This document shows positions 9,182-59,546 of a stretch of 64,000 nt of DNA, piece after piece. A model generated the notes under the pieces. That model was not told where the DNA came from, did not search any database, and saw only the letters and a list, made by a program, of their open reading frames with translations. This DNA comes from an uncultured Chloroflexia bacterium (GTDB lineage: Bacteria > Chloroflexota > Anaerolineae > Promineifilales > UBA4811): contig CAVPPE010000003.1 in the NCBI GenBank assembly GCA_963707345.1, forward strand, positions 440,426 to 504,425. The letters are read 5' to 3'. The translations under genes and the position numbers were made by a program. Positions within the stretch are counted from its first letter, which is position 1. Every line of letters begins with the position of its first letter.

Positions 9182-9281
9182 GTAGCTGCACAGGCAGTGT
9201 GAAGATTTTTCTGGGGGTGTGCGGGAGCGTAGCGCCCGCACACCCACCTCACCTCTCCAAGCCCTTGGGCTGAGCCGTTAC
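9182..9281 (+). repeat. ~100-bp dispersed TIR/hairpin repeat, copy A
   Basis: Ends GTAGCTGCACAG...CTGAGCCGTTAC; central hairpin with GC-GTA-GC loop. Confidence 0.85.
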
Positions 9282-9316
9282 GAATGCGGGTGCTGTTGAT
9301 AGCGAAAGGGTAGCGC

Positions 9317-9499
9317 ATGGAAAGCTTGAACCTCTCATCGGCCGAAATCGTACGTTTGTTGGTGGTCGCGGTGGTCTTGTTGGTTGGGCTGGGATTCCTC
9401 AAATGGGTGCTCAAGGCAACCATCAAAATGGTAGCGCTCGGCTGCCTGGGGACGGTAGTGGTTGTCGGTATTCTGCTGGTGTTGGCGCTAACCAGTTGA
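9317..9499 (+). CDS. Small two-TM membrane protein
   Basis: 60 aa, two hydrophobic helices, AAAGGG upstream. Confidence 0.6.
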   Translation: MESLNLSSAEIVRLLVVAVVLLVGLGFLKWVLKATIKMVALGCLGTVVVVGILLVLALTS

Positions 9500-9506
9500 C
9501 CGCGAT

Positions 9507-11882
9507 CTAGCTGGTTGAAAACTCGTCTTTGCCAAACGATTCCAACTCCAGCGCTAGATGTTGCAGCCGTGCCTGAACAGCATGGTGGATAGTGCCTTTC
9601 GGGTACGTGCCGCCAGCCCCCGATTCCCCGGCCGGCGTGCCGGTGAGGATCTCCAACCCTTCGTCGATGGTCCCCACTGCCCAAATGCTAAACTGCCCGG
9701 CCGACGCGGCCTCCACTACCTCTTCGCGCAGCATCAGGTCGCGCACGTTAGCGGCCGGGACAATCACGCCCTGTTGCCCCGACAGCCCCTGGATTTGGCA
9801 AATCTCGAAAAAGCCTTCTACCTTTTCGGTCACGCCGCCGATGGGTTGAACCTGGCCCCACTGGTTCACCGACCCGGTGACGGCGATCCCCTGGTTGATG
9901 GGTTTGCCAGCGAGGCTGGAGAGGAGGGCGTACAACTCGGCCGATGATGCGCTATCGCCCTCGATGCTGCTATAGTTTTGCTCAAATGCTAGGCTGGCTG
10001 AAAGTGAGAGTGGGTGCTCCTGGGCGTATTTGCCGCCCAGGTAGCCGGAAAGCGTCATTACGCCTCGATTGTGCAGCGGTCCGGAGAGCTCCACCTCCCG
10101 CTCGATGCTGACCACGCCCGTCCGTCCCATGTAGGTTTGGGCCGTGATGCGGGAGGGTTGCCCGAAGGAATGGTCGCCGATCTGCATCACGTACAGCCCG
10201 TTTACCTGTCCCACCACATCTCCATCTGTATCTACAAATAGCATCCCTTCCCGAATCTGACGCCGCAACCGCTCCTCAATCAGGTTGGAGCGGAAGGTAC
10301 GCTCGTTGATGGCCCGGGAGATATCTTCTGCCTGGACAGTAGTGCGTCCGGCCGTGCCGGCCCAATAGGATGCTTCCCGGATCACGTCTGCCACTTCGCC
10401 AAAGCGGGTGCTCAACTTGCCCTGCGAGCCAGCCAGCCGCGACCCGTATTCGATGATTTTGCCAATTGCCCCGCAGTCAAAATGCCTCAGGTTCTCTTCG
10501 TGGCAGCGAGCTGCAACAAAAAGCGCAAACTCGTTCTCATTCTCCGGCGTGCGGTCCATTTCAGCGTCAAAGTCTGCCTTGACCTTGAACAGCTTGGCAA
10601 AATCCTCTTCCAGCCCAAAAAGAGTGTAGTAGAGGGCCGGGGCCCCCAGCAAGACGACCTTGACGTTGAGCGGGATGGGTTCCGGGTCCAGAGTTTTGGT
10701 AGCAATGGCCTCGGCGGCCGGTTCCTCAATGCGGATGACTCGATCGGTAAGGGCGCGCTTGAGCGCCTGCCAGGCCCGGTCGTCGGTCAACACTTCGCCG
10801 GCGCGCAATACCAGGTAGCCGCCATTGGCCCGGTGCAGGCAGCCGGCTTTGATGTTGGTAAAGTTGGTGGTGGGCGCGCCAAATTTGATGTCGTACTCGA
10901 TCCGGCCGACCAGATTGTGATAGCTGGGATTGCTTTCCACGACAACTGGCGCACCGGCCGTTTTGCTGTGGTCCACAATCAGATTGACCTGGTAGCGCTG
11001 GAACGGATCGAGCTCGCCCTTGTCCTCTTCTTGCGGCCGAAAGTGGTCGACGTGCTGAATGATATCTTCCCGCATCAGGTCCAGGTGCAGCAGGGCTTCC
11101 TCTTCGACGGCGTAGGTGGATTGCAGAGCGCGGAAGTAATGCTCCGCTACCGAGGTGGCGACGCGTTGGTCCAGAGCCACCGTCTCTACCCTGGTTTCTT
11201 GCTCCAGTGAGATGACGGTTTTGAGCGCTTCTTCCAACTCCCGTTCCAACTCCCGCCGGGCGCTTTCCAGCCTTTCTTGCTCCTCGGCCGCGAGCGCGTT
11301 GAATGCCTCCTGTGGTATGGGCTGACCGTCTGCCACCGGGGTGATGACCAGGCCGTCTGGCGTGCGGATGATGGTGAACCCTTGCTCTGCCGCCTTGTGC
11401 TGGATCTTTTGCAGTACAAGGCTTCGCTGACCTTCGTACTCGTCAGAGATGCGGGCCAGCGCTTCGGAATACTCCTTGGTCTCGAACGCCTTGGGGATTT
11501 CGCGCCGCAGGCAGTTGATCAATTCGGCGATGTCATCCCGGAAACGAGCGCCCATGCCGGCCGGCATGGTGATGGCCCGCGGCCGACGCGGGTCTTGAAA
11601 GTTTTGCACGTACACCCAATCATCTGGCACCCGCGCCGAGACCGCCTTTTCTTTCAGAAACCGCTCGATGGAGGTGGTGCGGCCGCTGCCGGCCGGGCCC
11701 AGCACGTAAATGTTAAAACCAGGGCTGTCTATGTCTATCCCAAACTCGATTGAGCGGGTCCCGCGGGGCTGGCCGATGATCTTTTTGGTAAATGGAAGAT
11801 CAGCCGTCGTCTCAAACGTGAACCGGTCGGTTTCACAGACCCGGCGCAGTTGGTCCGGATTGAGTTTGGCTATTGGGCTCAT
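9507..11882 (-). CDS. Lon-like protease, LonC type (AAA_32 + Lon_C)
   Basis: IEGDSASSAE catalytic Ser, GGVTEKVEGF Lys; degenerate Walker A GPAGSGRTT. Confidence 0.88.
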   Translation of the reverse strand: MSPIAKLNPDQLRRVCETDRFTFETTADLPFTKKIIGQPRGTRSIEFGIDIDSPGFNIYVLGPAGSGRTTSIERFLKEKAVSARVPDDWVYVQNFQDPRRPRAITMPAGMGARFRDDIAELINCLRREIPKAFETKEYSEALARISDEYEGQRSLVLQKIQHKAAEQGFTIIRTPDGLVITPVADGQPIPQEAFNALAAEEQERLESARRELERELEEALKTVISLEQETRVETVALDQRVATSVAEHYFRALQSTYAVEEEALLHLDLMREDIIQHVDHFRPQEEDKGELDPFQRYQVNLIVDHSKTAGAPVVVESNPSYHNLVGRIEYDIKFGAPTTNFTNIKAGCLHRANGGYLVLRAGEVLTDDRAWQALKRALTDRVIRIEEPAAEAIATKTLDPEPIPLNVKVVLLGAPALYYTLFGLEEDFAKLFKVKADFDAEMDRTPENENEFALFVAARCHEENLRHFDCGAIGKIIEYGSRLAGSQGKLSTRFGEVADVIREASYWAGTAGRTTVQAEDISRAINERTFRSNLIEERLRRQIREGMLFVDTDGDVVGQVNGLYVMQIGDHSFGQPSRITAQTYMGRTGVVSIEREVELSGPLHNRGVMTLSGYLGGKYAQEHPLSLSASLAFEQNYSSIEGDSASSAELYALLSSLAGKPINQGIAVTGSVNQWGQVQPIGGVTEKVEGFFEICQIQGLSGQQGVIVPAANVRDLMLREEVVEAASAGQFSIWAVGTIDEGLEILTGTPAGESGAGGTYPKGTIHHAVQARLQHLALELESFGKDEFSTS

Positions 11883-11925
11883 GGTTTCGCTCCTGTTGTA
11901 GTTTGCGGGCCGCATTGCCCCGGGG

Positions 11926-11978
11926 AAAAAGACAAACCCTCACCCAGAATTTACATTTTTCCTGAATGAGGGTTTGAC
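11926..11978 (-). terminator. Intrinsic terminator after jag
   Basis: CAAACCCTCA...TGAGGGTTTG stem followed by TCTTTTT on the minus strand. Confidence 0.6.
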
Positions 11979-12004
11979 ATGACAGAAAGCCTCAGCGGGC
12001 AGCG

Positions 12005-12787
12005 CTAGCTCTTGGCCTTGGGCAGAATGGTTACCTTGCGCCGGTCCAGTTCTCCAACGCTTTCGGTGACCACGGTTGGGTGATTGCGCAGAGCCAGGTG
12101 GATGATGCGGCGCTCGTAGGCGTTCATTGGTTCCAGCGCAATCCGCCGATTGCGGCGGGTGGCCTGTTCCGCAATGCGCAACGCCAGCTTGCGGAGCGCT
12201 TTTTCACGGCGTGCTTTGTACCCTTCGATGTCTACCAGCAGGTTGACACGCTGCTTGGCTTCCTTGTTGATAATCAGCCGGGCAACGTGCTGGACGGCCG
12301 CCAGCGTTTCCCCTTTGCGGCCGATCAGGAAGCTCAGGTCCTGGCCGCGCAAATTCAGGATGTAGGTGTCTTCATCGCCTGTGTTGTTGGATGGCTCAAC
12401 GCGCCCCTCGATTTCTGCGTCTACCTGCATTCTGTCCAATAGCTCCGACAGCACCTCGCGCGAGCGTTCGAGAATCGCTTGAGGGCCGGCCAGGTCAGGT
12501 TCTGGCTCTCGCTCTGGCTTTGGCTCTGGTGCCGGTGCCGGCCGGGGCTGCGGGCGGGCTGCGGCTGGCGGTGGGGCGAGTTTCTCCGCGGCCGGCTGGG
12601 TCCCTCCGCTGGCAGTGAGGCGGACCAGAGCATCCCGCGAACCGATGCCGAGGACCCCCCGGCTGGGTTGCTGGATCACTTCAACCGTTACCTGCTCGCG
12701 CGCAACTCCCAGTTGGGCCAGCCCGGCCGCAATGGCGGATTCCACGTCAGCGCCGCTGGATTCAATCGATCGAATCTGTTGTACCAT
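12005..12787 (-). CDS. jag: Jag/EloR RNA-binding protein (Jag_N, KH, R3H)
   Basis: LIGRKGETL KH motif; MNAYERRIIHLAL R3H motif; follows yidC. Confidence 0.93.
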   Translation of the reverse strand: MVQQIRSIESSGADVESAIAAGLAQLGVAREQVTVEVIQQPSRGVLGIGSRDALVRLTASGGTQPAAEKLAPPPAAARPQPRPAPAPEPKPEREPEPDLAGPQAILERSREVLSELLDRMQVDAEIEGRVEPSNNTGDEDTYILNLRGQDLSFLIGRKGETLAAVQHVARLIINKEAKQRVNLLVDIEGYKARREKALRKLALRIAEQATRRNRRIALEPMNAYERRIIHLALRNHPTVVTESVGELDRRKVTILPKAKS

Positions 12788-12837
12788 GCTTTTCCCTCTC
12801 TCGCCTGGGCGCCGTGGCAACGGTACCCGGCAATCTG

Positions 12838-13662
12838 TTAGCGTTTGCTCTTGTTTTTACTTTTCTGCTTGGGCGGCGCGGGCGCGGGCGCGGGCACCAA
12901 TTTTTCGGCTGTGGCGGCCGAACTCTTGCTTCCTCTGAAACCCAGTCTGTTCATGCCCCAATATTGCAGCACGCCAATCAGGTTGGAAATGATAAAGTAG
13001 ATCGAGAGGCCAGAGGCGAACGAGAGGGCGAAAAAGCCAAACATGATGGGCATGGTCAACATCATGGACTGGTTCATGCCGGCCATCTGATTGTCCGACT
13101 GGCCGGAGGATGAAGGGGTCATGATTTTCTGCTGCCAGAAACCGGTTGCCACCACCAGCAGGATGAGGATGTAAGCGTACCATGGCTGGGCGCCTCCGGG
13201 CGGCTGGCCCAAATTGATGCCCAGCCACTTGTTGTTCAACGGGATAAGCTGGGTGAGATTGGGAAGGAAGGCATACAGGCGCTGGGAAAGCTCGAGGAGT
13301 TGCAAAGGGGTGGCCGCCAGGGAGGTGATGATGGCCTGATAGAGACCAAACATGATGGGCATGGTCAGCAGCAGCGGCAGACAGCCACCCAGAGGATTAA
13401 TCTTGTGCTCGCGGTAGAGCTCCATCTGTGCCTGGCTAAGCTTTTCTTTGTCGTTGACGTACTTTTTCTTGAGTTTTTCCAGTTCCGGCTGAAGGTCTTG
13501 CATGGCTTTGGCCGAGCGCTGTTGCTGGAGGGTGAACGGGAGGGTGATGAGCCTGGTGATGAGGGTGAAAACGGCCACTGCCAAGGCAAAGTTGTTGAAC
13601 AGTACCTGATACAACAGGAGCAGTAGATTGGTCATTGGGTTCAGAATCAAGTTGTCCCACAT
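12838..13662 (-). CDS. yidC: Membrane protein insertase YidC
   Basis: LQPELEKLKKKY, INPLGGCLPLL and GLSIYFIISN motifs. Confidence 0.95.
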   Translation of the reverse strand: MWDNLILNPMTNLLLLLYQVLFNNFALAVAVFTLITRLITLPFTLQQQRSAKAMQDLQPELEKLKKKYVNDKEKLSQAQMELYREHKINPLGGCLPLLLTMPIMFGLYQAIITSLAATPLQLLELSQRLYAFLPNLTQLIPLNNKWLGINLGQPPGGAQPWYAYILILLVVATGFWQQKIMTPSSSGQSDNQMAGMNQSMMLTMPIMFGFFALSFASGLSIYFIISNLIGVLQYWGMNRLGFRGSKSSAATAEKLVPAPAPAPPKQKSKNKSKR

Positions 13663-13676
13663 GGCGTTACCGTCTC

Positions 13677-14858
13677 CTACTTGTCGGTTGGCGGGATGTG
13701 CTGCCATTGGAGCACGCCCGTTTCAGCGTTGAATACTTGCAGCAGCACGTTTCCCTGCGCGGGTGTTACCAGCACCAGGTCTCCCTGCACGGCCGGACTG
13801 GTGTAGATGGTCTCATCGGTGGCCTGCTCCCAAACGATCCGGTAGTCGGCCGGATCCAGCGCCAGCACCACGCCGCGAGTGCTGATGTTGCCCGGATTGG
13901 CGACCTTGCGGCCGGTTACGTACAGTCGGCCGGTTTCCGGGTCGTAAACTGGCCGGCCGCGGATGGCATCGGCCACCTGTTGGCTCCACAATACCTCACC
14001 GCTGTCCGGGTCCACGGCGTACAGGTTGCCGCCCAGATCGCCGAAAAAGAGCTTGTCGCCGGCCAGTTCCGGCCGGTCCCAGACCCAGTTCTCGGCCACC
14101 ACCCGCCAGAGCTGTTGGCCGGTCTTGACGTCCAGCGCGTACAGGCTGTAGTCAAAGTTGCCCACAAAGAGCTTGTCTCCCTCGGCCGAAAGGAGCGGGG
14201 TGCCCGCCATGGCGCCGGGCAACTCGGCAGACCAGATCTCTCGGCCGGTCGCGGTCTCAAGGGCATACACATGGTGGTCCAGCGAGGAGATGTAGATCGT
14301 TTCCGGGGTCACCAGCGGCTCGGACCAGTTGCCGTGCTTGGTGGTGAACTGCCACTGGATTGCCGCCAACTCGGCCGCACGCCGCGCCTCATCTGCTTTT
14401 TCGGCACCCGTGCCCAGCCGTTCCAGTTCCGCCAGTTTGAGCGCGAATAGTTCGTTGCCGGCCGTGGCAACAAACACCATCCCATCAAACAGCACCGGGC
14501 TGCCAATATAACGGTCACTGGCGCGATGAAAGGCCCACTCTACCGTCAGGGATTCGCGGTCGATCCCGTACAGCACATTGTCGTATCCGCCTATCACCAT
14601 CAGACCGTCAGTGATCACTGGCGGCGCATAATAGGCTGGGCTCTTGGCATCAACCGCGCCGGGGAATTGCCACTGGACGCGCTGCGCTTGCGCGTCAATG
14701 GCATAAATGTTTTGATTAAAAGCGATGTATGCCAGGTTATCTTCTATCGAGATGCCAGGCCAGCTAGTAGAGGCCAGCCGGCTGCCGGAACAACCAGCCA
14801 GCAACAGGGTCAGGCCCACCATCAACAGGGGCCATAGAAAACGTTTATCCGGTTTCAA
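13677..14858 (-). CDS. PQQ-like beta-propeller lipoprotein (BamB-like repeats)
   Basis: Lipobox LLAGC; repeated YALDxxTGxxxW blades; TTG start after GGAGGG. Confidence 0.85.
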   Translation of the reverse strand: MKPDKRFLWPLLMVGLTLLLAGCSGSRLASTSWPGISIEDNLAYIAFNQNIYAIDAQAQRVQWQFPGAVDAKSPAYYAPPVITDGLMVIGGYDNVLYGIDRESLTVEWAFHRASDRYIGSPVLFDGMVFVATAGNELFALKLAELERLGTGAEKADEARRAAELAAIQWQFTTKHGNWSEPLVTPETIYISSLDHHVYALETATGREIWSAELPGAMAGTPLLSAEGDKLFVGNFDYSLYALDVKTGQQLWRVVAENWVWDRPELAGDKLFFGDLGGNLYAVDPDSGEVLWSQQVADAIRGRPVYDPETGRLYVTGRKVANPGNISTRGVVLALDPADYRIVWEQATDETIYTSPAVQGDLVLVTPAQGNVLLQVFNAETGVLQWQHIPPTDK

Positions 14859-14883
14859 CTCTTTCCCTCCACGAATAGCTTGC

Positions 14884-15093
14884 TCAAGGGACGGGGTCAA
14901 ACCCGCCAGGGTGAAATGGATGGCAGCGTGTTACACGCTTGATCGCCAGCCAGCCTCCGTTGAGCAGGCCGTGTTTTTCGATTGCCTGATAGCCGTATGT
15001 TGAGCAACTTGGTTCGAAGCGACAAGATGGGGGCATCACCCGCCCAAGCGTGAGCTGGTAAAAGCGAATAAGCCCCAATGCCAGGAATTTCAT
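14884..15093 (-). CDS. yidD: Membrane protein insertion efficiency factor YidD
   Basis: CRFEPSCSTY...RCHPFHPGGFDPVP. Confidence 0.95.
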   Translation of the reverse strand: MKFLALGLIRFYQLTLGRVMPPSCRFEPSCSTYGYQAIEKHGLLNGGWLAIKRVTRCHPFHPGGFDPVP

Positions 15094-15479
15094 GCCAAGT
15101 TTGGTTGGTCAGGTGGGGTGGCGGTCTGATGCTGGCCGGCCGGCGGGGTCCAAAGCCGGGCGCGTTGCAGCAATTGGAAGAAGGCTTGGTCTATCTGGGC
15201 CAGGGTCGCGTCGCGCAGCGGGGGGCGGGCGATGAGGACACAATCCCACCCGGCCGGGATGGAGTCCAACCGGTGGCGTACCGCCTCGCGCAGCAATCTT
15301 CGTGTCCTGTTCCGTTGGACTGCGTTGCCAATCCGCTTGCTGGCGATAAAGCCAAAGCGGCTGGTGGACAGGCCGGTGTCGACCGCCGAGAGCACCATCA
15401 GCCGGTTGGACCAGGTTTGCCCGCGTGCACGCACATGAGCAAAATCACGGGATCGCCTGAGCCGATGTCGTCGCTCCAT
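15090..15479 (-). CDS. rnpA: Ribonuclease P protein component
   Basis: SKRIGNAVQRNRTRRLLRE RNR motif. Confidence 0.95.
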   Translation of the reverse strand: MERRHRLRRSRDFAHVRARGQTWSNRLMVLSAVDTGLSTSRFGFIASKRIGNAVQRNRTRRLLREAVRHRLDSIPAGWDCVLIARPPLRDATLAQIDQAFFQLLQRARLWTPPAGQHQTATPPDQPNLA

Positions 15480-15521
15480 GACAAGCGCGGAGCCAAAGGG
15501 GGACAGACCGCCGACAACTGA

Positions 15522-15695
15522 TTACGCGTTCCAGTTGACCTTTTTGACGTGGTTGCGCTTCACCGCCAGTTGATGGCGCCCACGCAGGCGGCGTGCTTTG
15601 AGCACATTGCGGCCGCCGTGGGTCTTCATCCGCTGGCGAAAGCCATGGACGCGGGCGCGTCGGCGAATCTTTGGTTGATACGTTCTCTTTGGCAT
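15522..15695 (-). CDS. rpmH: 50S ribosomal protein L34 (57 aa; absent from the ORF track)
   Basis: Hand translation [57 protein letters not shown]. Confidence 0.97.
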
Positions 15696-15774
15696 TCCTT
15701 CTCTCCTACAACAACAGAGCCGCGCGTCTGCCCGGCCCTGTTAGGGTTTTGCTATTGGCTGTCAAAGCGCGAAA

Positions 15775-15803
15775 ATTATACCGCACTCGTCAGGCGTGGT
15801 CAA
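15775..15803 (-). promoter_or_regulatory. Sigma70-type promoter of the rpmH operon
   Basis: TTGACC-17 bp-TATAAT. Confidence 0.8.
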
Positions 15804-15822
15804 ATGCGTTTGCGGCATCCGT

Positions 15823-15878
15823 TTTGCACAAAACCTGCATCCTATCTCCATAGGTCCTTCATACTTCAGTGCTAGAAT
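15823..15878 (+). promoter_or_regulatory. Four 11-bp-phased repeats plus extended -10 (putative OmpR-family site 1)
   Basis: TTTGCACA/CCTGCATC/TCTCCATA/CCTTCATA at 15823, 15834, 15845, 15856; TGcTAGAAT with -10 at 15873. Confidence 0.7.
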
Positions 15879-15945
15879 GACAGACCTTATGCAGGTAGCA
15901 ATACCGCAAGTCCTGAATCGGAGCAGATGTGTATAGGAGAGGCAT

Positions 15946-16587
15946 ATGTCCAACGTAACGACGATTTCAAAACAAACTCGAGCCAATTGGCTAATTGACG
16001 CGGCCGTTTTCCTGACTGGGGCGGCGGCGATCCTTTCCGGGATCTATTTTCTTTTCCTGCCATCGGGCGGGTATGAAGGCGGCCGGAACCCGATGTACGG
16101 CGTGGTGATCCTGTTTGATCGGCACACCTGGGACGATCTGCACGTCTGGGGAGGTGTGCTGATGATTGCGGCTGCGGTGGTCCATTTTGCCATCCATTGG
16201 GATTGGGTCAAGCGGATGAGCCGCAGGGTGGTGAAGGCTCTGAGAGAGCCGGCCTGCGGTCTTTCGAAAGGCGCTTGGGTGAATGTGGTGGTGGACCTGG
16301 TGATTGCCATTAGCTTTGTGATCACGGCCGCGTCCGGCGTTTTCTTTTTGTTTGCCCCGGCCGGCGGCTTTCAGGGCGGCCGGAATCCCGGCTGGGACCC
16401 CGGTTTCCTGTTCAGCCGCGCCACCTGGGACCTGATTCACACCTGGGCCGGGGTGGTGATGGTGGCAGCGGCCGTGATGCATGTGTGGATTCATTGGCGC
16501 TGGGTGGTCAATGTGACCAGGCGCTTTTTCCTCTCGCTCCGGCCGCAGCCGCGCTTGGCGCCGGTGGTCGTGACCAAGTTTGAGTGA
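15946..16587 (+). CDS. Tandem DUF4405-like membrane protein (cytochrome b-like His pairs)
   Basis: Two internal repeats WxxxHxWxG...HxxxHWxW; AGGAG RBS. Confidence 0.8.
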   Translation: MSNVTTISKQTRANWLIDAAVFLTGAAAILSGIYFLFLPSGGYEGGRNPMYGVVILFDRHTWDDLHVWGGVLMIAAAVVHFAIHWDWVKRMSRRVVKALREPACGLSKGAWVNVVVDLVIAISFVITAASGVFFLFAPAGGFQGGRNPGWDPGFLFSRATWDLIHTWAGVVMVAAAVMHVWIHWRWVVNVTRRFFLSLRPQPRLAPVVVTKFE

Positions 16588-16627
16588 GACGGGCAACAAT
16601 CGGATATCAATAAGGGGAGATACAGCG

Positions 16628-17203
16628 ATGGTTAAGAGAATTCTGATAGGAACGCTTTTTGTCGGGCTGATCGGTTTTCTGGCGGCCGGGGCGGTCATCC
16701 GCACCCTGGATCGAACCGGCCCGGCGGCAGCGGCCGCCAGCGAGGAGACACGCGAGCAAACGGGCCAGGGCCGCGGCCGGGATGCGGAAGCGGCCGGCGA
16801 ATGTGGGGTAGATGGCCCCAAGACCGAGGGCACAGATTTACGCGGCCAGGGCAATGGTAATGCAGACCGCAGGGCGACCGGGGAGCAGGTCGGGGCAGGC
16901 CAGGCAGAGGTAGATGAATGGGTGCAGATCAGTGGCGCAGTCGTTGCGGTAGATGCAGAGATGTTGACAGTGCAGCTGCCTGATGGAAACCAGCTGATCG
17001 TCGACGGCCGGGCGTGGCGGTATGTTCAGGAGCAGGGTTTTGCGATCTCGGTGGGAGATGAGGTGACGCTGATTGGCTTTTTTGAGAATGGCGACTTGGA
17101 GGTTGGTCAGATCGACGACTACACCAGCGGCCAGACTGTGAGCATTCGCGACGAGTCCGGTCGGCCGCTGTGGGCCGGCCGCGGCCGGGGTGGTCAGTTT
17201 TAG
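16628..17203 (+). CDS. Secreted or membrane-anchored hypothetical protein with OB-fold-like C-terminal domain
   Basis: Signal/TM, Gly-rich linker, ISGAVVAVD...VGDEVTLIG beta pattern; GGGGAG RBS. Confidence 0.7.
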   Translation: MVKRILIGTLFVGLIGFLAAGAVIRTLDRTGPAAAAASEETREQTGQGRGRDAEAAGECGVDGPKTEGTDLRGQGNGNADRRATGEQVGAGQAEVDEWVQISGAVVAVDAEMLTVQLPDGNQLIVDGRAWRYVQEQGFAISVGDEVTLIGFFENGDLEVGQIDDYTSGQTVSIRDESGRPLWAGRGRGGQF

Positions 17204-17228
17204 TCAGACACCAGATTCAGAAGCGTGG

Positions 17229-17262: not shown

Positions 17263-17299
17263 GGTGTGCGCGCTCAAGTTGTCGTCGTGGAAGAAAAAC

Positions 17300-17340
17300 G
17301 GGGGTGGGGATGGAGCGCGAAGCGCTCCATCCCCACCCCC
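17300..17340. repeat. Perfect 19-bp-stem hairpin with GAA triloop (divergent relative of the dispersed repeat)
   Basis: GGGGGTGGGGATGGAGCGC-GAA-GCGCTCCATCCCCACCCCC. Confidence 0.7.
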
Positions 17341-17477
17341 TATCACCATCCTGCTGGAGTCGAGTCACTCACAGCATCTGAGCACACACTTTTTTGTGGC
17401 GGGTTGTTGTTTTTTGCCTCGCTTGTGCTACAATCCGGCTCACGGGTTGCTACTACACTGGAAACGAGGAGGTCGCC

Positions 17478-19025: not shown

Positions 19026-19126
19026 CCAACTGCCTCGGCAGGTGGAAGATGCCAGGGGGAGTGCGGACGCGAAGCGTCCGCACTCCCCCCATCCGACCCC
19101 GCCAAGTCCTTGAGCCGGGCAATTAC
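19026..19126 (+). repeat. ~100-bp dispersed TIR/hairpin repeat, copy B
   Basis: Ends CCAACTGCCTCG...CCGGGCAATTAC; perfect 16-bp stem with GAA loop at 19055-19089. Confidence 0.8.
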
Positions 19127-19157: not shown

Positions 19158-21833
<2,676 letters not shown>

Positions 21834-30975: not shown

Positions 30976-31033
30976 GTTGTCTCCTTGTCGTGATAGCTCG
31001 GCTCAATTCCCCGGTTGCCTGAGCTGTTACTTC

Positions 31034-32876: not shown

Positions 32877-32952
32877 CAATCGTTTATCCCTTTGACCATC
32901 TTTGCATCTGCGCAACTGGTGGGCTCGGCCGGAGCGGTTTCATGTGCCCAAG

Positions 32953-33051
32953 GTAACTGCCCAGCCAGTATCAAGTTGTTCGGGGTGTGAGAGCGCGGAG
33001 CGCCCGCACACCCCAGCTTTCCGTTCCCAAGCCCATGGGCTTGGTAGTTAC
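32953..33051 (+). repeat. ~100-bp dispersed TIR/hairpin repeat, copy C
   Basis: Ends GTAACTGCCCAG...CTTGGTAGTTAC; central hairpin with GC-GGA-GC loop. Confidence 0.85.
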
Positions 33052-48700: not shown

Positions 48701-48719
48701 TGCTTGTTAAATTGTCAGG

Positions 48720-48792
48720 CGTCCTTGGCGCGATTCGAACGCGCGGCCTTTGCCTCCGCAGGGCAACGCTCTATCCACTGAGCTACAAGGAC
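48720..48792 (-). tRNA. tRNA-Arg(GCG)
   Basis: Cloverleaf; anticodon arm TTGCC-CTGCGGA-GGCAA; T-loop GTTCGAATC. Confidence 0.92.
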
Positions 48793-48795
48793 GCG

Positions 48796-48885
48796 TGGCG
48801 GGGAGGTAGGGATTCGAACCCTAGGTGGCTTTTACACCACAACCACTTAGCAGGCGGCCCCGATCGTCCACTCCGGCACCTCCCC
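48796..48885 (-). tRNA. tRNA-Ser(GCT)
   Basis: Anticodon loop CT-GCT-AA, long variable arm, encoded CCA. Confidence 0.95.
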
Positions 48886-48894
48886 AAGTATGTT

Positions 48895-49022
48895 GCAACT
48901 GCTCAACTCAAGGTCCTGGGTAGGGTGAGATGGTGGGTGTGCGGGCGTCGGACATCCCGCGTACAGCGGGGCGAAGCGCCCGCACACCCACCGAAAAATC
49001 TTCACGCTGCCTGAGCAGTTAC
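48895..49022 (-). repeat. Dispersed TIR/hairpin repeat, copy D (128 bp, 24-nt insertion in the hairpin)
   Basis: Minus strand GTAACTGCTCAGGCAGCGTGAAGATTTTT...TTGAGCAGTTGC; lies between two tRNA-Ser genes. Confidence 0.88.
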
Positions 49023-49034
49023 CAATTGTTAAGG

Positions 49035-49117
49035 CGGAGGGAGAGGGATTCGAACCCCCGAAGCTTGCGCTTGCCGGTTTTCAAGACCGGTGCCATAGTC
49101 CACTCGGCCATCCCTCC
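49035..49117 (-). tRNA. tRNA-Ser(TGA)
   Basis: Anticodon arm CCGGT-CTTGAAA-ACCGG, long variable arm. Confidence 0.95.
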
Positions 49118-52240: not shown

Positions 52241-52244
52241 TCAC

Positions 52245-53237
52245 TTGATGGTGGAACGCACAGGCCTGGTGGTCAAAGCGCAGAGCGGCTTTTTTACCGT
52301 GCAGACGGCCGCTGGCCCGGTGGTGTGTCGCATCCCCGGCCGGCTGAAAGAAGAACACCAGCGACAGGTTGAATTGGACCCCGACTTTGGCCGTAGCGAC
52401 ATCGTTGCTGTAGGGGATCGGGTGGAGATCACGGATTTTGGGGGTGGCAGCGGCGAGATTGAAGCGGTGCAAGAGCGCGAGCGGGCGCTCACCCGGCGGG
52501 CCCCATTGCCCGGCGGCCGGGGTGCTAACGCCACCGAACACGAGTACAAACAGATCATTATTGCCAACCCGGACCAGGCGGTCTTTGTCTTTTCGGTCAT
52601 GGACCCGGAGCCCAGCTTGCGAATGCTGGACCGCTTCTTGGTGATGGCGGAAGATGCCGGGATCCCGGCCGCCATCTGTGTGAACAAAATCGACCTGGCG
52701 CTGGAGGCCGCGCAGCCCGATTACCCATCGGAGCTCTTTGGCCTGTACGCTCAAATTGGCTATCCGGTAGTCTATGCCAGCGCCCGGGATCGGAAGGGCA
52801 TTGACCAGTTGCAAAACCTGCTTGCAGGCAAGATCTCTGTGCTGGCGGGCCCCTCTGGGGTGGGAAAATCCAGCCTGCTCAACGCGATACATCCCGGTTT
52901 GGGTTTGGCAATCCAGGAGGTCAGCCAGGCCACAGGCAAGGGGCGCCACACGACTCGGGTCCGCGAGTTGATCCCGTTGGAGGGGGGCGGCTACGTGGCG
53001 GACACCCCCGGCTTGCGCACGATGGCGCTGTGGGATATCGAGCCCGATGAACTGGACGCCTATTTCCGCGAGATTGCTCCGCTGGTGACCGATTGCGCCT
53101 TTAGTGATTGCAGCCATACCCACGAACCGGGCTGCGCCGTGCTGGAAGCCGTGGACGATGGGCGCATCCATCCGGACCGATACGAGAGCTATTTGCGGCT
53201 GCGGGACGAAGCGGCCGAGCGGCCATGGTGGTATTAG
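52245..53237 (+). CDS. rsgA: Ribosome small subunit-dependent GTPase A
   Basis: NKID, GPSGVGKSS, GRHTT, DTPG, CxFxDCxHxxEPGC. Confidence 0.96.
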   Translation: MMVERTGLVVKAQSGFFTVQTAAGPVVCRIPGRLKEEHQRQVELDPDFGRSDIVAVGDRVEITDFGGGSGEIEAVQERERALTRRAPLPGGRGANATEHEYKQIIIANPDQAVFVFSVMDPEPSLRMLDRFLVMAEDAGIPAAICVNKIDLALEAAQPDYPSELFGLYAQIGYPVVYASARDRKGIDQLQNLLAGKISVLAGPSGVGKSSLLNAIHPGLGLAIQEVSQATGKGRHTTRVRELIPLEGGGYVADTPGLRTMALWDIEPDELDAYFREIAPLVTDCAFSDCSHTHEPGCAVLEAVDDGRIHPDRYESYLRLRDEAAERPWWY

Positions 53238-53298
53238 AAAACTAGTTCGAAAAAAACCCGGTTTTCTTATTGCCTTCTTCTGTAAAGTCGACTAAAAT

Positions 53299-54251
53299 AT
53301 GTCAAGTATGAGCGGCTCGTTGCGTCACACGATTACCCGAATCATCTTGATTGGCCTGGCTGGGTTCCTGATACTCTCCAGCGATGGGCTGGCTCAGGAG
53401 GGCGTTGACTCCCTTTTCTTCCCCGAGACCGGGCATACCGTGCCCCGCGAGTTTGTGCCCTTTTTCCGTCAGTACGGTGGCCTGCAGGTTTTTGGTTACC
53501 CTATCACCGAGATCTTTTTCTACGAGCCAGACGGCCGGTACGTGCAGTACTATCAGAATTGCCGGCTGGAGATCGAGTTGCCGGGCCGCGTGTTTGTCAG
53601 CGCGCTCCCGCTTGATTTGCACCAGGAAAAGCGAGAGCCTCGCCTGGAACCCAACCAGGTTCCACTGGACGCAACATACTACCCTCTTACTGGTCACAGC
53701 GTTCGAATGTCGTTTTTGGACTTTTATCTGGCCCACGGCGGGCCGCAGGTCTTTGGCTACCCCATTACCGAATTGCTCACGGAACACGGCCGGCAGGTTC
53801 AATATTTCGAGCGAGTCAAATTTGAGTGGTGGCCCGAACTACCCAATGGTTTCAAGGTGCAATTGGCCAGGATGGGCGAGTACATGTTCCACGAGGCCAA
53901 TTTAGATGATGTCCTGCTGAACCCCATCGCGCGCGTGGAAACGACCGGGATTCATCTGGCTGCTTCAGTGCAGACGGCGGTGATGACGCGGGAGGGGGAG
54001 TCCAAAAGGTGTATGTGTTGGTCACCGATCAGCATAAGAATGCTGTGCCGGGTGCCAATGTGAGTGTTCGGCTGCTCTGGCCGCAGGGAGAGATTGCGGT
54101 AGACCCGATTGGCACAGACGGGGATGGAATCGCCGTGTTTGAGCCCAATGTGTATTCGCTCCCGGCCGGGACCACCATCTCGGTCAAGGTGAGCGCCACC
54201 TACCAAAACCACCAGCGGGACACGGCGACCGCTTTCCTGATCTGGTGGTGA
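53299..54251 (+). pseudogene. Secreted protein with FPETGH repeats and Ig-like C-terminus, split by a frameshift at G-run 53994-53998
   Basis: Two F/YPxTGH...FGYPITE repeats; one added G joins ORFs 53299..54063 and 54009..54251. Confidence 0.65.
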
Positions 54252-54443
54252 TTATTCCCAGCCGATAATCCAAATGCACGCCCCGGCAACCAGCACGGTC
54301 GCGATGACCAGTGCGGCCCACTGATGGGGCAGCAGGCCCACGTCGCGAGCCTCCCAGACAAGGATAGCCACCATGCCCAGGGCCAGCACGGCCCAGGCGG
54401 ACAGTTGGGGGTGGTTCTTGACCCAGTTGGTAATTCTTGACAT
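54252..54443 (-). CDS. Small two-TM membrane protein
   Basis: 63 aa, two hydrophobic helices, GGGAG RBS. Confidence 0.7.
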   Translation of the reverse strand: MSRITNWVKNHPQLSAWAVLALGMVAILVWEARDVGLLPHQWAALVIATVLVAGACIWIIGWE

Positions 54444-54473
54444 CGAATTCTCCCAATGCTCCGCAAACGGCCG

Positions 54474-54968
54474 CTAGACGGGTCGCATCACCCGTTTTTC
54501 ACGCAACTTGCGGGTCATCACAAAGGTGTCGGCCGGCATGGATTGCTCGGCCGCTCGCCGCCAGGCGGGAATCAGGTCGCCGAGTGCGGCCTCGGCAAAG
54601 TCACACGCCTGGTACAGGCTGAGGAGCTTGTCCGGTGCGCCGAGTGGCGGGAAGAGCAACGCAACCTCGCACATCAGATCGTGGGCTGACTGGCAGACCG
54701 CTTCCAGCAGCAGCAGGGCCACATCCCGGCCGGTAGGGAGTATCGTCACCTGCCGGATGCGGGCAATAAAATCTTCCGCGTGCCAGCCGATCAGGGCCTG
54801 AATTTGTCCGTCCACTTCCGCTACCATGTAACCGTGCTCGCCAAAGCTTTGCAGCACCTGGACACGGTCCACAGGGAGGTGATCTGGTTGCGACTGGTTG
54901 ATAAAGGCCACCAGCGCATCCACGTCACGTGGTCCCGCTCGCCGAATCACCGTTTCGTAGCTCATCAC
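54474..54968 (-). CDS. GNAT-like fold hypothetical protein
   Basis: IRRAGPRDV...MVAEVDGQI pattern; overlaps coaE stop. Confidence 0.65.
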   Translation of the reverse strand: MMSYETVIRRAGPRDVDALVAFINQSQPDHLPVDRVQVLQSFGEHGYMVAEVDGQIQALIGWHAEDFIARIRQVTILPTGRDVALLLLEAVCQSAHDLMCEVALLFPPLGAPDKLLSLYQACDFAEAALGDLIPAWRRAAEQSMPADTFVMTRKLREKRVMRPV

Positions 54969-55573
54969 TCCGCTCTGATCGATGGCAGGTTGCGCCAGGC
55001 TTGCTCCACCTGCTCTTCCGTTGACTCGATATTTCCGGAGGTGTCGATTATCACGTCCGCCTGTGCCAGCTTGGCCGCCTGCGGCGGCTGGCTGCGAATG
55101 CGAGTCCAGGCCTGCTCCGGTGTCATCTGCCGGCCGGCCACCAGCCGCGCCAACTGTTGCTCCTCCGGGCAGTCCGTTACCCAGATACTCTGGCAGCGGT
55201 GCCGCAGATCGCCTTCCAATAGTTTGATGGCCTCAATGACCACCACGGCCGCGCCAGCACCGGCTATCAGTGTGCTTACCTGCTGACCAACCCGTGGGTG
55301 GACAATCGATTCCAGGTCGCGCATCCCGGCCGGGTTTCCAAACACCCTGGCGCCCAACTCGGCCCGGTTGATGGTCCCGTCGGCGTTCCGCACCCCGGGA
55401 CCAAAGCGGGCGATGATTTCCTGCTGGACGGCCGGGTCGCTTGCCAGAATCTGATGTGCCAACTGGTCCGCGTCAATCACCCGTGCGCCACGCTGGGCCA
55501 GCATAGCCAGCACAATAGATTTGCCGGTGGCAATGTTGCCTGTGAGGCCGATGACGATAGGATTATCCCTCAT
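54965..55573 (-). CDS. coaE: Dephospho-CoA kinase
   Basis: IGLTGNIATGKS, IDADQLAH, LESIVHP. Confidence 0.95.
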   Translation of the reverse strand: MRDNPIVIGLTGNIATGKSIVLAMLAQRGARVIDADQLAHQILASDPAVQQEIIARFGPGVRNADGTINRAELGARVFGNPAGMRDLESIVHPRVGQQVSTLIAGAGAAVVVIEAIKLLEGDLRHRCQSIWVTDCPEEQQLARLVAGRQMTPEQAWTRIRSQPPQAAKLAQADVIIDTSGNIESTEEQVEQAWRNLPSIRAE

Positions 55574-57488
55574 GGATGCCAGCAAGCTGCGCCCATTCTG
55601 CCAGGCGGCGCTCCAAGTCTGCTTCCACTGTGCTGTATTCTAGCCCCAACTGGCGAACTTTGTCAAACTGCTGTGCCGAGCCGGCCGCTTCCAGTTGCTG
55701 TGCCAGTAGGTTCAAGTGGGTTTCCAGTTGGTGGATAGCGTTCTCCAATGCAGCGGCCTGCTGGGAAGCGAGTCGCAGCGCACGGTCTTGCTCGGAGCGT
55801 TGACGCGTGGGGCGTACGGCCTTTCGCTCTGCCTGCGCCTGAGCGGCCTCCATGACCGCTTCATGCGCTCGCGCCGCCAGGTACTCGTCGTAACCGCCCT
55901 CGTACACCCGTAGCCGGCCGCGGTCCAGCAGCCAAATCTGGCTGGCCAGCCGGCTCACCAAGTAACGGTCGTGGCTCACCAGCAGGATAGTTCCATCAAA
56001 CTCGTCCAGCACGCTTTCCAGTACCTCCTGGGCGGGGATATCCAGGTGGTTGGTGGGCTCGTCCAGCAGCAACAGGTTGGCTTGCTGGCGCATCAGCAGG
56101 GCCAGTGCCAATCGGCCGCGCTCGCCGCCGCTCAACGCGCTCACCGGCTTGTAGATGTCGTCACCGGTAAAGAGAAAGCGGGCCAGGTAGTTCCGTGCCT
56201 CGCTGGTCAGCATAAAGTGGTGAACCAGCAGCTCTTCCAACACCGTCCGTCCGGTGTCCATGTCCAGTTCGTCGTGTGCCTGAGCAAAGTAGCCCAGGTC
56301 CAAGCTGGCTCCGTGTCGCAACCGGCCGCTCAGCGGTGGCAGGTCGCCCAGAATGGTTTTGAGAAAGGTGGTCTTGCCGGCACCGTTGGGGCCGATCAGC
56401 GCGGCACATTCGGTCCGGCGAAAGTCGATGTCATCGGCCGCAAACAGCGGCGCGGCCGGTGTGTAACCGATCACCAAATCTTTGGTCTGCAAGATAATGT
56501 CGCCACTGCGACGCTTGGACTGGAAACGGAGCTTGAGCCGCCGGCCGGTCTGCGGCCGGGCCACCAGGTTGTCCCGTTTGAGTCTCTCCAATCGTTTCCG
56601 CCGGCCCTGCGCCTCCTTGGTTCGCTGGCCCGAGATGTGGCGCCGGATAAAGTCCTCTTCGCGGGCGATAATGGCTTGTTGGGTTTCAAATTCAGCAAGG
56701 CGGCGATCCATCCGTTCCTGTCGCTGGTTCACGTAAGCGCTATAGTTCCCGCGGTAGGTCTCGACCTCTCCCCAGTCCAGTTCCCACACCCGGTTCACCA
56801 CCTGGTCCAGGAAGTAACGGTCGTGGCTGACAAGCAGAAGCGCTCCAGGCCAGTTGGCCAGGTGGTTCTCCAGCCATTCGATGGCTTGAATGTCCAGGTG
56901 ATTGGTCGGCTCGTCCAGCACCAGCAGGTCGGGCGCGCGCAGGATCAATTTCGCCAGCAGGGTGCGGGTCTTTTGCCCTCCACTGAGGTGGGCGATGGGC
57001 ATCCAAAAGTCGGTTTCCGCAAAGCCAAGGCCGGACAGCACCTGGCGGATGCGCAATTCGAATTCGTACCCGCCCTCCAACTCAAAGCGCTCCAGTGCTG
57101 TTCCGTACCGTTCAATCAACTCTTCGGCCGGCCCATTGACGTTATCTGGCGCGCTCATTTGCCGCTCCATCTCCCGCAGGGTCCGCTCCTGCTTCTGCAG
57201 CCCGGCAAAAACGGTCAGCATCTCGGTCCAAACCGGCCGTCCTTCGTCCTCAAAGGCGTGTTCGGCCTCCTGGGGGAGATAGCCAATGGTGATGTTGCGC
57301 GCCAAGTGGACCACCCCGGCCGAAGGGGGCTCCAGCCCGATCAGAATGCGAATAAAGGTTGTCTTGCCGGCGCCATTGGGCCCCACCAGCGCAATCCTCG
57401 CCCGGTGCGGTAGAGAGACCGAGATGTTCCAAAAGATATCGTCGGCGCCAAACGATTTAGCCACCTTGCTTGCGGTCAGAATAGCCAT
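55563..57488 (-). CDS. ABC-F family ATP-binding protein
   Basis: Two ABC domains (GPNGAGKTT; LDEPTNHLD twice), no TM, C-terminal coiled coil. Confidence 0.93.
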   Translation of the reverse strand: MAILTASKVAKSFGADDIFWNISVSLPHRARIALVGPNGAGKTTFIRILIGLEPPSAGVVHLARNITIGYLPQEAEHAFEDEGRPVWTEMLTVFAGLQKQERTLREMERQMSAPDNVNGPAEELIERYGTALERFELEGGYEFELRIRQVLSGLGFAETDFWMPIAHLSGGQKTRTLLAKLILRAPDLLVLDEPTNHLDIQAIEWLENHLANWPGALLLVSHDRYFLDQVVNRVWELDWGEVETYRGNYSAYVNQRQERMDRRLAEFETQQAIIAREEDFIRRHISGQRTKEAQGRRKRLERLKRDNLVARPQTGRRLKLRFQSKRRSGDIILQTKDLVIGYTPAAPLFAADDIDFRRTECAALIGPNGAGKTTFLKTILGDLPPLSGRLRHGASLDLGYFAQAHDELDMDTGRTVLEELLVHHFMLTSEARNYLARFLFTGDDIYKPVSALSGGERGRLALALLMRQQANLLLLDEPTNHLDIPAQEVLESVLDEFDGTILLVSHDRYLVSRLASQIWLLDRGRLRVYEGGYDEYLAARAHEAVMEAAQAQAERKAVRPTRQRSEQDRALRLASQQAAALENAIHQLETHLNLLAQQLEAAGSAQQFDKVRQLGLEYSTVEADLERRLAEWAQLAGIHEG

Positions 57489-57622
57489 CACATGCCTGCT
57501 CTTTGCCAAGTGGACGGAATTATACCACAGGCGCTCAGTCTAGTTCTCCCCCCAAAAACATTACTGCCTGAGCGGTTACAGGGCAGTTACCATTTTTTCT
57601 GATTTGGACTATAATCTGCCCC

Positions 57623-58033
57623 ATGAAAAAACAGCGTGATTTTGGCCCCTGGCCTGCCTTGATTGCGGGTGCAGGTCTTGGCGTGGGCGGCTGGGCTTTA
57701 TTGATCGATCTCCTCGGCCGGTGGCCCGTCTCGCCGGAACGGGACTGGCGATTCCTCTTTCTGTCTTCCCTCTGGCTGGGTGTGACCGGCACTGCGTTGC
57801 CGCTGGTCTGGCTGTTGCAGCGCCGCTTTGGCCGGCCGGACGCCGCGACCGGCTGGCACCCCTATTGGGTGCAGGCCCGACGGGCGGCCTGGGTGGGGTC
57901 CTGGGTGGCGCTTTGTGCGCTGCTGCAAATGCATCGCCTGCTTAATTGGGCGATGGCGTTGTTGTTGCAGGTGGTGCTGGTTTTGCTGGAGGCGCTGTTG
58001 AGCAAGCGGCGGGAAGCGGAGCAGGAGGTATGA
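57623..58033 (+). CDS. Four-TM hypothetical membrane protein
   Basis: Hydrophobic ORF overlapping the selA start (ATGA). Confidence 0.7.
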   Translation: MKKQRDFGPWPALIAGAGLGVGGWALLIDLLGRWPVSPERDWRFLFLSSLWLGVTGTALPLVWLLQRRFGRPDAATGWHPYWVQARRAAWVGSWVALCALLQMHRLLNWAMALLLQVVLVLLEALLSKRREAEQEV

Positions 58034-59407
58034 ACACGGAGCTGTTTCGCCAGTTACCCAGCGTGGAGCAACTGCTGCAAACTCCGGCCGTTGCTGGATT
58101 GGCCGCTACTTACGGCCGCCCGGCCGTGCTGGAGGCGTTGCGCGCCACGCTGGACGGTGCGCGGGAGGCGATCCGCGCCGGCCGGGGATTATCCATCGCC
58201 GACGGGGAGTTGCTGGCGCAGGCAGAAGACTTGCTGGTGAAACTGATGGCCCCCACGTTACGCCCGGTGATCAATGCCACCGGAGTAATTGTTCACACCA
58301 ACCTCGGCCGATCGCCGCTCAGCACGGCCGCCCGCCGGGCGGTTGCCGCCGCAGCCGCACAGTACAATACGCTGGAATACGATCTGGCTGAAGGGGCGCG
58401 GGGCTCCCGCTCGATCCACGCCCAGAATCTACTGACGCGGCTGGTGGGAGCGGATGATGCCACGGTGGTCAACAACAATGCTGCGGCCGTGCTGCTCACC
58501 CTCACCGCATTGGCGCAGGGCAGGGAGGTGATTATCTCCCGCGGCCAACTGGTGGAGATTGGCGGCAGCTTTCGCATCCCGGAGGTGATGGCCCAATCCG
58601 GAGCCAGGCTGGTGGAGGTGGGGGCTACCAATCGCACCCACCTGCGCGATTACCGCGACGCCATCACCGAGAACACGGCCGCCATCATGGTGGCGCATCG
58701 TTCCAATTTTATGATTGTGGGCTTTACGGCCGAGCCCGAACTGGCCGAACTGGGTGCGCTGGCAAACGAGCATGGTCTGTTGCTGTTGCACGATCTGGGC
58801 AGCGGCACGCTGTTGGACACCGCGCCCTATGGGCTGGCGCACGAGCCGACGGTGCAGGAGAGTTCTGGCGGCCGGGGTGGACGTGGCCTGCTTTAGCGGG
58901 GACAAGCTACTGGGCGGCCCGCAGGCCGGGTTGATCGTCGGCCGGGAGGAGCTGCTGGCGCGGATCAAAAAGCACCCGCTGGCCCGCGCGGTCCGGCCGG
59001 ACAAGCTGTGTTACGCCGGTCTGACGGCTACCCTGTTGCATTATCTCAAAGATGAAGCCGTTCGCGAGATTCCCATCTGGCGGATGATGGCGATGCCGGC
59101 CGATCAGTTGAAACGGACCGCGCGGCGCTGGGCTGGCCGGTTGCGACGAGCCGGCTTGGCGGCGGCAGCGGTCCCTGGCGAGTCGACGGTGGGCGGGGGG
59201 AGTTTGCCAGGTCAGACTTTGCCGACCTGGCTGGTGGCGCTGGAGCATCCCAGCCCGGCCGGGCTGGCGGCCCTGTTACGGGCGGCCGACCGGCCGGTGA
59301 TCGGCCGGATTGAAAGCGACCGGTTCCTGCTGGACCCCCGCACCGTGCTGGCGGAACAGGAAAACGACCTATTGGAAACTGTCGTGTCGATGGCGCTGGC
59401 CGCCTAG
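58030..59407 (+). pseudogene. selA: L-seryl-tRNA(Sec) selenium transferase with a +1 frameshift at 58863-58864 (real or sequencing error)
   Basis: VINATGVIVHTNLGR, VNNNAAA, SRGQLVEIGGSFR, then FSGDKLLGGPQAG in another frame. Confidence 0.92.
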
Positions 59408-59443
59408 ACGTGCGTACTTTTGATCACGACTGTGTTTTGTGGA

Positions 59444-59546
59444 GTAACTGCTCAGGCAGTGTGACGACTCTTGGGGGGTGTGCGGGCGCGGAGTGTCCGC
59501 ACACCCCCCATCTTGCCCCACCCACGTCTTTGGGCTGAGCAGTTGA
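59444..59546 (+). repeat. ~100-bp dispersed TIR/hairpin repeat, copy E
   Basis: Ends GTAACTGCTCAG...CTGAGCAGTTGA; hairpin with GGA loop. Confidence 0.88.

Follow-up and report, generated by a model that had tools for sequence, protein, structure and literature searches.

What are the repeats of about 100 bp that recur between the genes of an uncultured Chloroflexia bacterium? Five copies, each with inverted ends and a central hairpin, lie within the 64,000-nucleotide stretch of contig CAVPPE010000003.1 analysed here (hereafter the window). A first-pass annotation of the window had placed them between a non-autonomous MITE (miniature inverted-repeat transposable element), a REPIN-like element and a structured non-coding RNA. 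Our analysis of the window, of the 3.66-Mb, four-contig genome that holds it (62% G+C; G000, contigs C1 to C4) and of 40 relatives indicates that the repeats are very probably a family of MITEs of the IS66 type, belonging to the ISBst12 group of that insertion sequence (IS) family.

A dispersed family of short elements

Direct reading of all five window copies reveals the same layout, in which GTAACTGCTCAG and its complement form the opposite ends, and a five-way alignment has a mean column identity of 66%. A profile built from the five copies (nhmmer) returned 113 matches in the genome, which resolve into 74 non-overlapping loci, 63 of them near full length, with all four contigs represented. 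This is far beyond chance and upholds the proposal of a dispersed family. In addition, a covariance model (R1) was built from 40 short-loop genome copies (alignment A2), including four of the five window copies. Its genome-wide count, a check that the first-pass annotation had recommended, is 118 matches over both strands. Run over the window with filters off, R1 recovered each of the five predicted full copies, at 71-104 bits. The copies and remnants in the window are as follows, with the full and long-loop copies established by both R1 and direct reading.

9182-9281, plus strand: full MITE copy, 100 bp (R1 82.2 bits)
19026-19126, plus strand: full MITE copy, 101 bp (R1 71.1 bits)
30990-31030, minus strand: remnant, a terminal-repeat-like GTAACAGCTCAGGC with 1 mismatch followed by about 27 degenerate nt
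32953-33051, plus strand: full MITE copy, 99 bp (R1 81.8 bits)
48895-49022, minus strand: long-loop MITE copy, 128 bp (R1 match 48899-49018, 74.2 bits)
57527-57590, minus strand: internally deleted copy in which the terminal repeat and arm of the left side remain (GTAACCGCTCAGGCAGTAATGTTTTTGGGGGG), the rest truncated
59444-59546, plus strand: full MITE copy, 103 bp (R1 103.6 bits)

The two end remnants that had been suspected are also present, as terminal-repeat-like 14-mers with 1 mismatch each on the minus strand at 31017-31030 and 57566-57579. The latter continues into an internally deleted copy of about 53 nt (57527-57579), which by itself is weak under R1 (11.8 bits, E 0.62), and at 57581-57590 it is adjoined by a further, partial terminal repeat, GTAACTGCCC. 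With five copies in 64 kb, the window has about 4 times the average density of the genome, so the spacing of one copy per 13 kb given in the first-pass annotation describes the window, whereas genome-wide there is about one copy per 50-58 kb.

Copies are 92-131 bp long around a consensus of about 103 bp, and no copy contains an open reading frame (ORF). The consensus of 40 copies is the one that had been drawn from the window. It begins with a 12-bp terminal inverted repeat (GTAACTGCTCAG at one end, CTGAGCAGTTAC at the other; 84.7% complementary over the 40 copies), followed by a left arm that is variable, a G/C-rich hairpin of 17 bp closed by a 3-nt loop and a right arm rich in pyrimidines, and a small 5-bp palindrome (CCCAA GCCC TTGGG), CCCAAGCCCTTGGG, precedes the right end. 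The 12-mer core alone is uninformative, with 22 genome matches at 2 mismatches against 21.3 expected. When mini copies are defined strictly, as two terminal repeats separated by 18-90 nt with no more than 3 mismatches in total, only three lie outside the nhmmer matches; about ten others, shorter or more degenerate, were recognized by eye and left out of the counts. Pairwise identity among copies has a median of 69% and a maximum of 90%.

Beyond this genome, a scan of our genome contig collection (own genome left out) with the pattern CTCAGGCAGN{55,85}TTGGGYTGARYAGT gave one match, in a sheep-rumen bacterium, which was taken as unrelated and due to chance. R1 matched in 5 of the 40 relatives, always at 44 bits or less compared with up to 119.5 bits in G000. 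The matches comprise one locus in G001 (on both strands), 13 in G005, 40 in G006, 9 in G014 and one weak match in G030 (E 4.5e-4), a genome on which no other result here relies. These were not counted as the same family, as the six loci that were read share the G/C-rich hairpin only and not the ends.

Exact target-site duplications and an empty site

The nature of the element is most evident at its borders. Across the 63 near-full-length copies, the flanking 8-mers are identical in 17, match at 7 or more of 8 positions in 31 and at 6 or more in 42; in controls that combine left and right flanks from different copies, a match of at least 7 of 8 arises at a rate of 0.0008. Flanks of 6, 7, 9, 10 and 11 nt taken from the same element ends gave no perfect case, indicating that the duplication is exactly 8 bp. 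Exact 8-bp duplications, terminal inverted repeats and the lack of an ORF identify the element as a MITE; together with the roughly 74 dispersed loci and a site that is empty in relatives, they bear out the non-autonomous MITE that the first-pass annotation had listed among its options.

Within the window, two of the five copies retain perfect duplications, GAATGCGG at 9174-9181 and 9282-9289 around the 9182 copy and TTTGTGGA at 59436-59443 and 59547-59554 around the 59444 copy. The duplications of the remaining three are eroded to 4-6 of 8 positions, with TGCCCAAG and TGACTAAG beside the 32953 copy matching at 6 of 8 and the degenerate flanks of the 19026 copy, read by eye, at 4 of 8. The fifth copy, at 48895, owes its greater length (128 bp) to a 24-nt insertion in the hairpin loop.

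This same copy provides a comparison of presence and absence, which covered one site, the spacer between tRNA-Ser(GCT) at 48796-48885 and tRNA-Ser(TGA) at 49033-49117. In G002, G003 and G004, which belong to the same family but to other genera, the tRNA-Ser pair is 13-22 nt apart and lacks the element, so that the empty site that had been anticipated in relatives does exist. The empty spacers hold one CAGTTGT-like motif; in G000, the 128-bp element lies between ...TGTT and CAATTGTT. The copy is thus part of a minus-strand cluster of tRNA-Arg(GCG), tRNA-Ser(GCT) and tRNA-Ser(TGA) (window 48718-49117), in which the 128-nt element may ride on a tRNA precursor transcript. In the contigs of four DNA metagenome runs, none skips the 59444 copy, and a 411-nt contig of run X3 spans 59295-59700 including this element with zero differences. 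Metagenome contigs that join both tRNA genes through 16-25 other letters belong to other organisms.

A candidate parent of the ISBst12 group

The window contains no cognate transposase, as had been noted, yet the genome holds a candidate elsewhere. DDE_Tnp_IS66 (Pfam PF03050) has four matches in the genome, and the best (E 1.1e-41, contig C2) is part of a 1461-bp, single-ORF IS66-family element at G000:C2:1050298-1051758, referred to below as the resident IS. At its borders is a perfect inverted repeat of 13 nt, made up of the 11-nt IS end GTAACTGTTCA plus two flanking bases and with 1439 nt between its arms, and a perfect 8-bp target duplication, GTCTGAAC, is found on both sides. The NF033517 transpos_IS66 profile aligns through positions 4-111 and 118-377 to two ORF pieces, which one in-frame TGA separates in the sequence as assembled. 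These two pieces of one NF033517/PF03050 gene are the sole content of the resident IS, which carries no tnpA or tnpB, and a single transposase ORF without tnpA and tnpB is the layout of the ISBst12 group.

Of 13 positions compared, the ends of the resident IS and of the MITE, GTAACTGTTCAGG and GTAACTGCTCAGG, share 12. G002, G005 and G032 contain homologues of the resident IS, 1.43-1.47 kb long and with GTAACTGTTCAC at their ends; the one in G002 has a perfect 8-bp duplication. An uninterrupted 444-aa homologue of the transposase is seen in G019. The MITE, the resident IS and its relatives all start with GTAAC and come with 8-bp duplications; GTAA ends and direct repeats of 8-9 bp are the hallmark of the IS66 family. 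Outside the Chloroflexota, a member of the ISBst12 group is ISDge4 of Deinococcus geothermalis, described in a 2026 paper (PMC12898284): it has one transposase of 449 aa, termini GTGACTACTCAGCA and GTAACTGCTCAGCA and a direct repeat of 8 bp, and its transposition has been seen experimentally. Of the two termini, GTAACTGCTCAGCA agrees with the MITE right end (GTAACTGCTCAGC) in 13 of 14 bases, and the G/A variation that distinguishes them recurs as the polymorphism at position 7 of the MITE terminal repeat. Compared with both ISDge4 and the resident IS, the MITE is far smaller, at about 103 bp, and has no transposase gene.

The flanks show that the elements inserted through a cut duplicating exactly 8 bp of target. 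Taken together, the shared termini and duplication length suggest that the MITEs would have been mobilised in trans by an IS66 transposase of the ISBst12 group that binds the common GTAAC ends. The genome now holds about 74 MITE loci compared with one full IS and one fragment. The fragment is a second, degenerate ISBst12-group transposase gene copy (L084, G000:C2:300354-300845) with two TAG stops and 79% identity over residues 117-280; a GTAACTGTTCAG end lies close by. Many target duplications are eroded and many MITE copies internally deleted. The low identity among copies, the in-frame TGA in the resident transposase gene and the fragmentary state of the second gene copy suggest that the family is old and now probably immobile.

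A second candidate was considered and rejected. A 2683-bp repeat, present as two copies that are 99.9% identical (G000:C2:923300-925982 and C3:118328-121010), codes for an ORF of 812 aa whose match to DDE_Tnp_IS66 is weak (E 5.8e-12). The ends of the repeat bear no relation to those of the MITE, so it was not retained as the mobiliser, and it may be an unusual IS66-related element.

Copies lie just upstream of genes

Genes were called with our own ORF caller, a crude procedure that takes the longest ORFs and scores their codon usage. By these calls the five window copies are intergenic, as had been described, and 12 of 13 apparent ORF overlaps are overlaps with over-extended 5' ends. Copies avoid convergent gene ends. 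None of 62 copies lies in a convergent region, compared with 9.9 expected from intergenic length (P = 2e-5), and a stricter set of ORFs of at least 100 aa leaves 3 of the 62 convergent where 9.2 would be expected (P = 0.013). The nearest called start codon is at a median distance of 46 nt. A -10-like hexamer reading into the element within 45 nt accompanies 31 of 63 copies, compared with 21.6% of random intergenic points, whereas in the outward direction there is no enrichment (12 of 63 versus 22%). The 31 copies carry 33 such inward sites, 25 of which have a co-oriented gene start beyond the element; taken over the 63 copies, these 25 stand against 15.7% when other genes are examined at matched upstream distances (P = 4e-6).

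The window copies illustrate this arrangement. A TAGAAT box at 9172-9177 reads into the 9182 copy, a TATAAT box lies 35 nt upstream of the 19026 copy, the 32953 copy is 37 nt upstream of a minus-strand ORF starting at 32915, and the next ORF start after the 59444 copy is within about 20 nt. Directly 3' of the TAGAAT box and the 9182 copy is a very hydrophobic 60-aa ORF (window 9317-9499, plus strand) with two predicted membrane-spanning stretches, judged by eye; whether it is real sets the context class of that copy.

This distribution suggests that insertion or retention may favour the stretch between a -10 box and a start codon. In that position, many copies would end up in transcripts as 5' leaders with a strong fold. 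The strong promoter-proximal 5' bias could reflect target choice by the ISBst12 transposase group, or retention.

The central hairpin and the case for an RNA

In the 40 aligned copies, 94.9% of the 17-bp central helix is paired and 14 of the 17 pairs carry changes in both partners; the observed pairing and covariation values were not attained in any of 500 shuffles. When partners are slid out of register, pairing falls to 34-46%. The covarying hairpin with compensated stem differences reported from the window is therefore real, and the 19026 copy shows such compensated changes (GGGGGAGTGCGGACGC / GCGTCCGCACTCCCCC). Conservation is also highest here, at 90-92% in the stems compared with 83-86% in the terminal repeats and 72-76% in the arms. 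With predicted folding energies of -42.6 to -69.4 kcal/mol (z-scores -2.7 to -7.1) and copies placed just 3' of -10-like boxes and close to called starts, these properties are those expected if the repeat were a cis-acting RNA leader or small RNA, whose transcript needs the hairpin as a 5' stabiliser or regulator and which mobility has merely spread.

Several observations speak against this as the primary identity of the element. Summed over the per-pair table, 32 cells are double changes and 8 are one-sided changes of the G-U type, with 34 unpaired, so that G-U intermediates are rare. The 3-nt loop occurs in two mirror states, GGA-like and TCC-like, and the 24-nt longer loop variant is likewise found in both orientations. 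The 63 near-full copies comprise 20 GGA-like, 16 TCC-like, 8 long-forward, 8 long-reverse, 1 ambiguous long and 10 unclassified loops, and L011 and L022, whose flanks are 91% identical, have opposite loops. Furthermore, the element has no preferred orientation relative to the nearest gene start (29 versus 20, P = 0.25), nor do its promoter-facing ends (18 versus 15). At the gathering threshold, the Rfam search of the window, another recommended check, found 3 tRNAs only, and six copies searched at E values up to 1 gave sub-threshold, miRNA-like hairpin noise of no more than 28.5 bits against gathering thresholds of at least 38. Full Watson-Crick swaps with few G-U pairs, two loop orientations and either gene orientation argue against selection at the RNA level. 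We consider an RNA as the primary identity unlikely, although a cis-RNA role is possible as a secondary function. The earlier remark that the structure looks conserved holds as an observation, but does not by itself imply an RNA function; hairpin covariation in mobile palindromes is no evidence of an RNA gene.

For the IS66-type MITE, these data instead suggest that the palindrome of the hairpin is maintained chiefly at the level of DNA. Template switching between the arms, or intrastrand correction, could maintain it and also flip the loop, since templated correction of one arm by the other would yield both double changes and loop flips. Mutation by template switching at quasipalindromes is an established mechanism (PMC7202029). 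Hairpin-loop inversions are known in plastid DNA. The likeness is that these processes perfect imperfect inverted repeats and can invert the loop between perfect arms; the difference is that here such a process would be deduced from double changes, scarce G-U pairs and two loop orientations. An alternative route would be selection for a DNA hairpin or a leader-RNA hairpin. The stems are better conserved than unbiased correction alone would give, so some selection on the hairpin, at the level of transposition or of the host, is likely. More generally, the two-state loop suggests frequent inversion or template switching at perfect palindromes.

Weighing the IS66 parent

A number of points count against an IS66-type MITE as set out above, or limit the data on which it stands. 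The only full-length resident IS has an in-frame TGA, a stop that may or may not be real. Position 8 of the terminal repeat is T in the resident IS and C in the MITE, and past the first 11-13 nt the similarity between MITE and IS is not significant (best P = 0.07, TGGGGTAAG). From the position-8 difference and the absence of subterminal similarity, it follows that the helper may be lost, or may be a different ISBst12-group member with C at this position. No pair of copies is more than 90% identical, and there is thus no sign of current activity. At the tRNA-Ser site the left duplication is eroded (4 of 8), which establishes an insertion but not the clean duplication that had also been sought in the comparison with relatives. 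The placement statistics rest on the ORF caller and a simple -10 rule, and a longest-ORF caller over-extends starts; the 9182 copy counts as not convergent only if the unverified 60-aa ORF is real. Lastly, the count of loop flips (9 changes of loop state on a flank-based tree, compared with a shuffled mean of 11.9) depends on a weak tree of about 73 columns.

Some of these points would also suit a MITE mobilised by a transposase outside the IS66/ISBst12 group that happens to make 8-bp duplications, the similarity of the termini being coincidental. The difference at position 8, the unmatched subterminal sequences and the state of the resident IS, with one broken full-length copy and one fragment, are all compatible with this view. 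However, coincidence would have to account for ends that share 12 of 13 bases with the resident IS and 13 of 14 with ISDge4, together with the same 8-bp duplication. In addition, a terminal-repeat scan of the genome found only MITE copies, remnants and the resident IS, and no other element with these ends. Another transposase is for these reasons very unlikely, and an ISBst12-group transposase remains the preferred mobiliser.

The stem is long and G/C-rich, and in the window a similar stand-alone hairpin (17300-17340) has a T-run after it on the minus strand, as would befit intrinsic transcription terminators repeated by chance. In the MITE consensus, however, the T-run is on the wrong side of the stem: it lies 5' (GAAGATTTTT-stem-ATCTTACC), so neither strand reads a stem and then a T-run. 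Copies are also depleted in convergent, terminator-type regions, and we regard terminators as highly improbable. A repetitive extragenic palindromic (REP) or REPIN-type element spread by a RAYT (Y1/HUH) transposase is barely credible: the repeats share with REPs and REPINs a dispersed, extragenic and palindromic architecture, and the genome does encode Y1_Tnp proteins (C1:714729-715091 and C2:1058796-1059127), but REPINs are RAYT-linked and lack target duplications, HUH transposition produces none, and here the duplications are exact 8-bp ones, no conserved GTAG or CGTC tag marks the hairpin foot in the consensus of 40 copies, and none of the genome matches is near either Y1 locus, which disposes of both the REPIN-like label and the suggestion that copies might flank a RAYT gene.

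Relation to known elements

As a kind of element, this is an ordinary bacterial MITE. Other bacterial MITEs include Correia/NEMIS, RUP and ERIC. MITEPsy1 of Pseudomonas syringae is a 100-nt element with 18-nt terminal repeats and a 4-nt duplication (PMC3189936). The family studied here resembles bacterial MITEs in being small and intergenic, in having terminal inverted repeats, target-site duplications and a predicted fold that is stable, and in its presumed use of an IS transposase in trans. It differs in its probable IS66/ISBst12 parent, its 8-bp duplication and its Chloroflexota host. It also differs in that the central hairpin does not consist of the two IS ends but is a separate module, better conserved than the ends. 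The MITE interior, comprising hairpin, arms and small palindrome, has no significant similarity to the resident IS, and we infer that the hairpin has another origin than the IS.

By term search, neither IS66 nor Chloroflex is mentioned in a review of prokaryotic MITEs from 2024 (PMC10969869), and our literature search found no description of an IS66/ISBst12-linked MITE or of a Chloroflexota MITE. The family thus appears to be undescribed so far. It ties miniature elements to the little-studied single-ORF (ISBst12) branch of IS66 and extends MITEs to the Chloroflexota. It also accounts for about 74 intergenic repeats, which if left unexplained would confuse the annotation and assembly of this lineage.

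Similar hairpins outside the family

A second repeat family of about 120-220 bp, with ends GTGCGCGC...GCACACAC, is present in the genome as three full copies and additional partial ones. It carries a similar G-rich hairpin of 19-22 bp, which in the window copy is the 19-bp stem at 17300-17340, and its 3-nt loop also occurs in both orientations (GAA and TTC). The full copies are as follows.

Window 17266-17385, plus strand: copy of this second, smaller repeat family, outside the MITE family and with different ends
G000:C2:247094-247312: full copy
G000:C2:1019361-1019579: full copy

A bolder reading is that the G-rich hairpin is an independent, self-correcting DNA module that recurrently flips its loop and is shared by several unrelated repeat families of this Anaerolineae lineage, with the MITE, this second family and the hairpin-only matches in G005, G006 and G014 as examples. 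At about 60 genes it would have come to lie, or have been retained, after the -10 box and ahead of the start codon, where as a hairpin in the 5' leader it would govern mRNA stability, or else would mark promoter-proximal DNA as a target for transposition. We put this forward tentatively, as a rather doubtful extension of the data.

Outside the MITE copies, the genome also contains 104 long hairpins (stem of at least 13, no more than 1 mismatch, loop of 3-6). Many follow a 5'-GGGGG...triloop...CCCCC-3' theme and form small sequence groups. Examples are found at these positions in G000.

C1:436061-436103: long hairpin
C2:199333-199375: long hairpin
C3:415037-415071: long hairpin
C4:189125-189165: long hairpin

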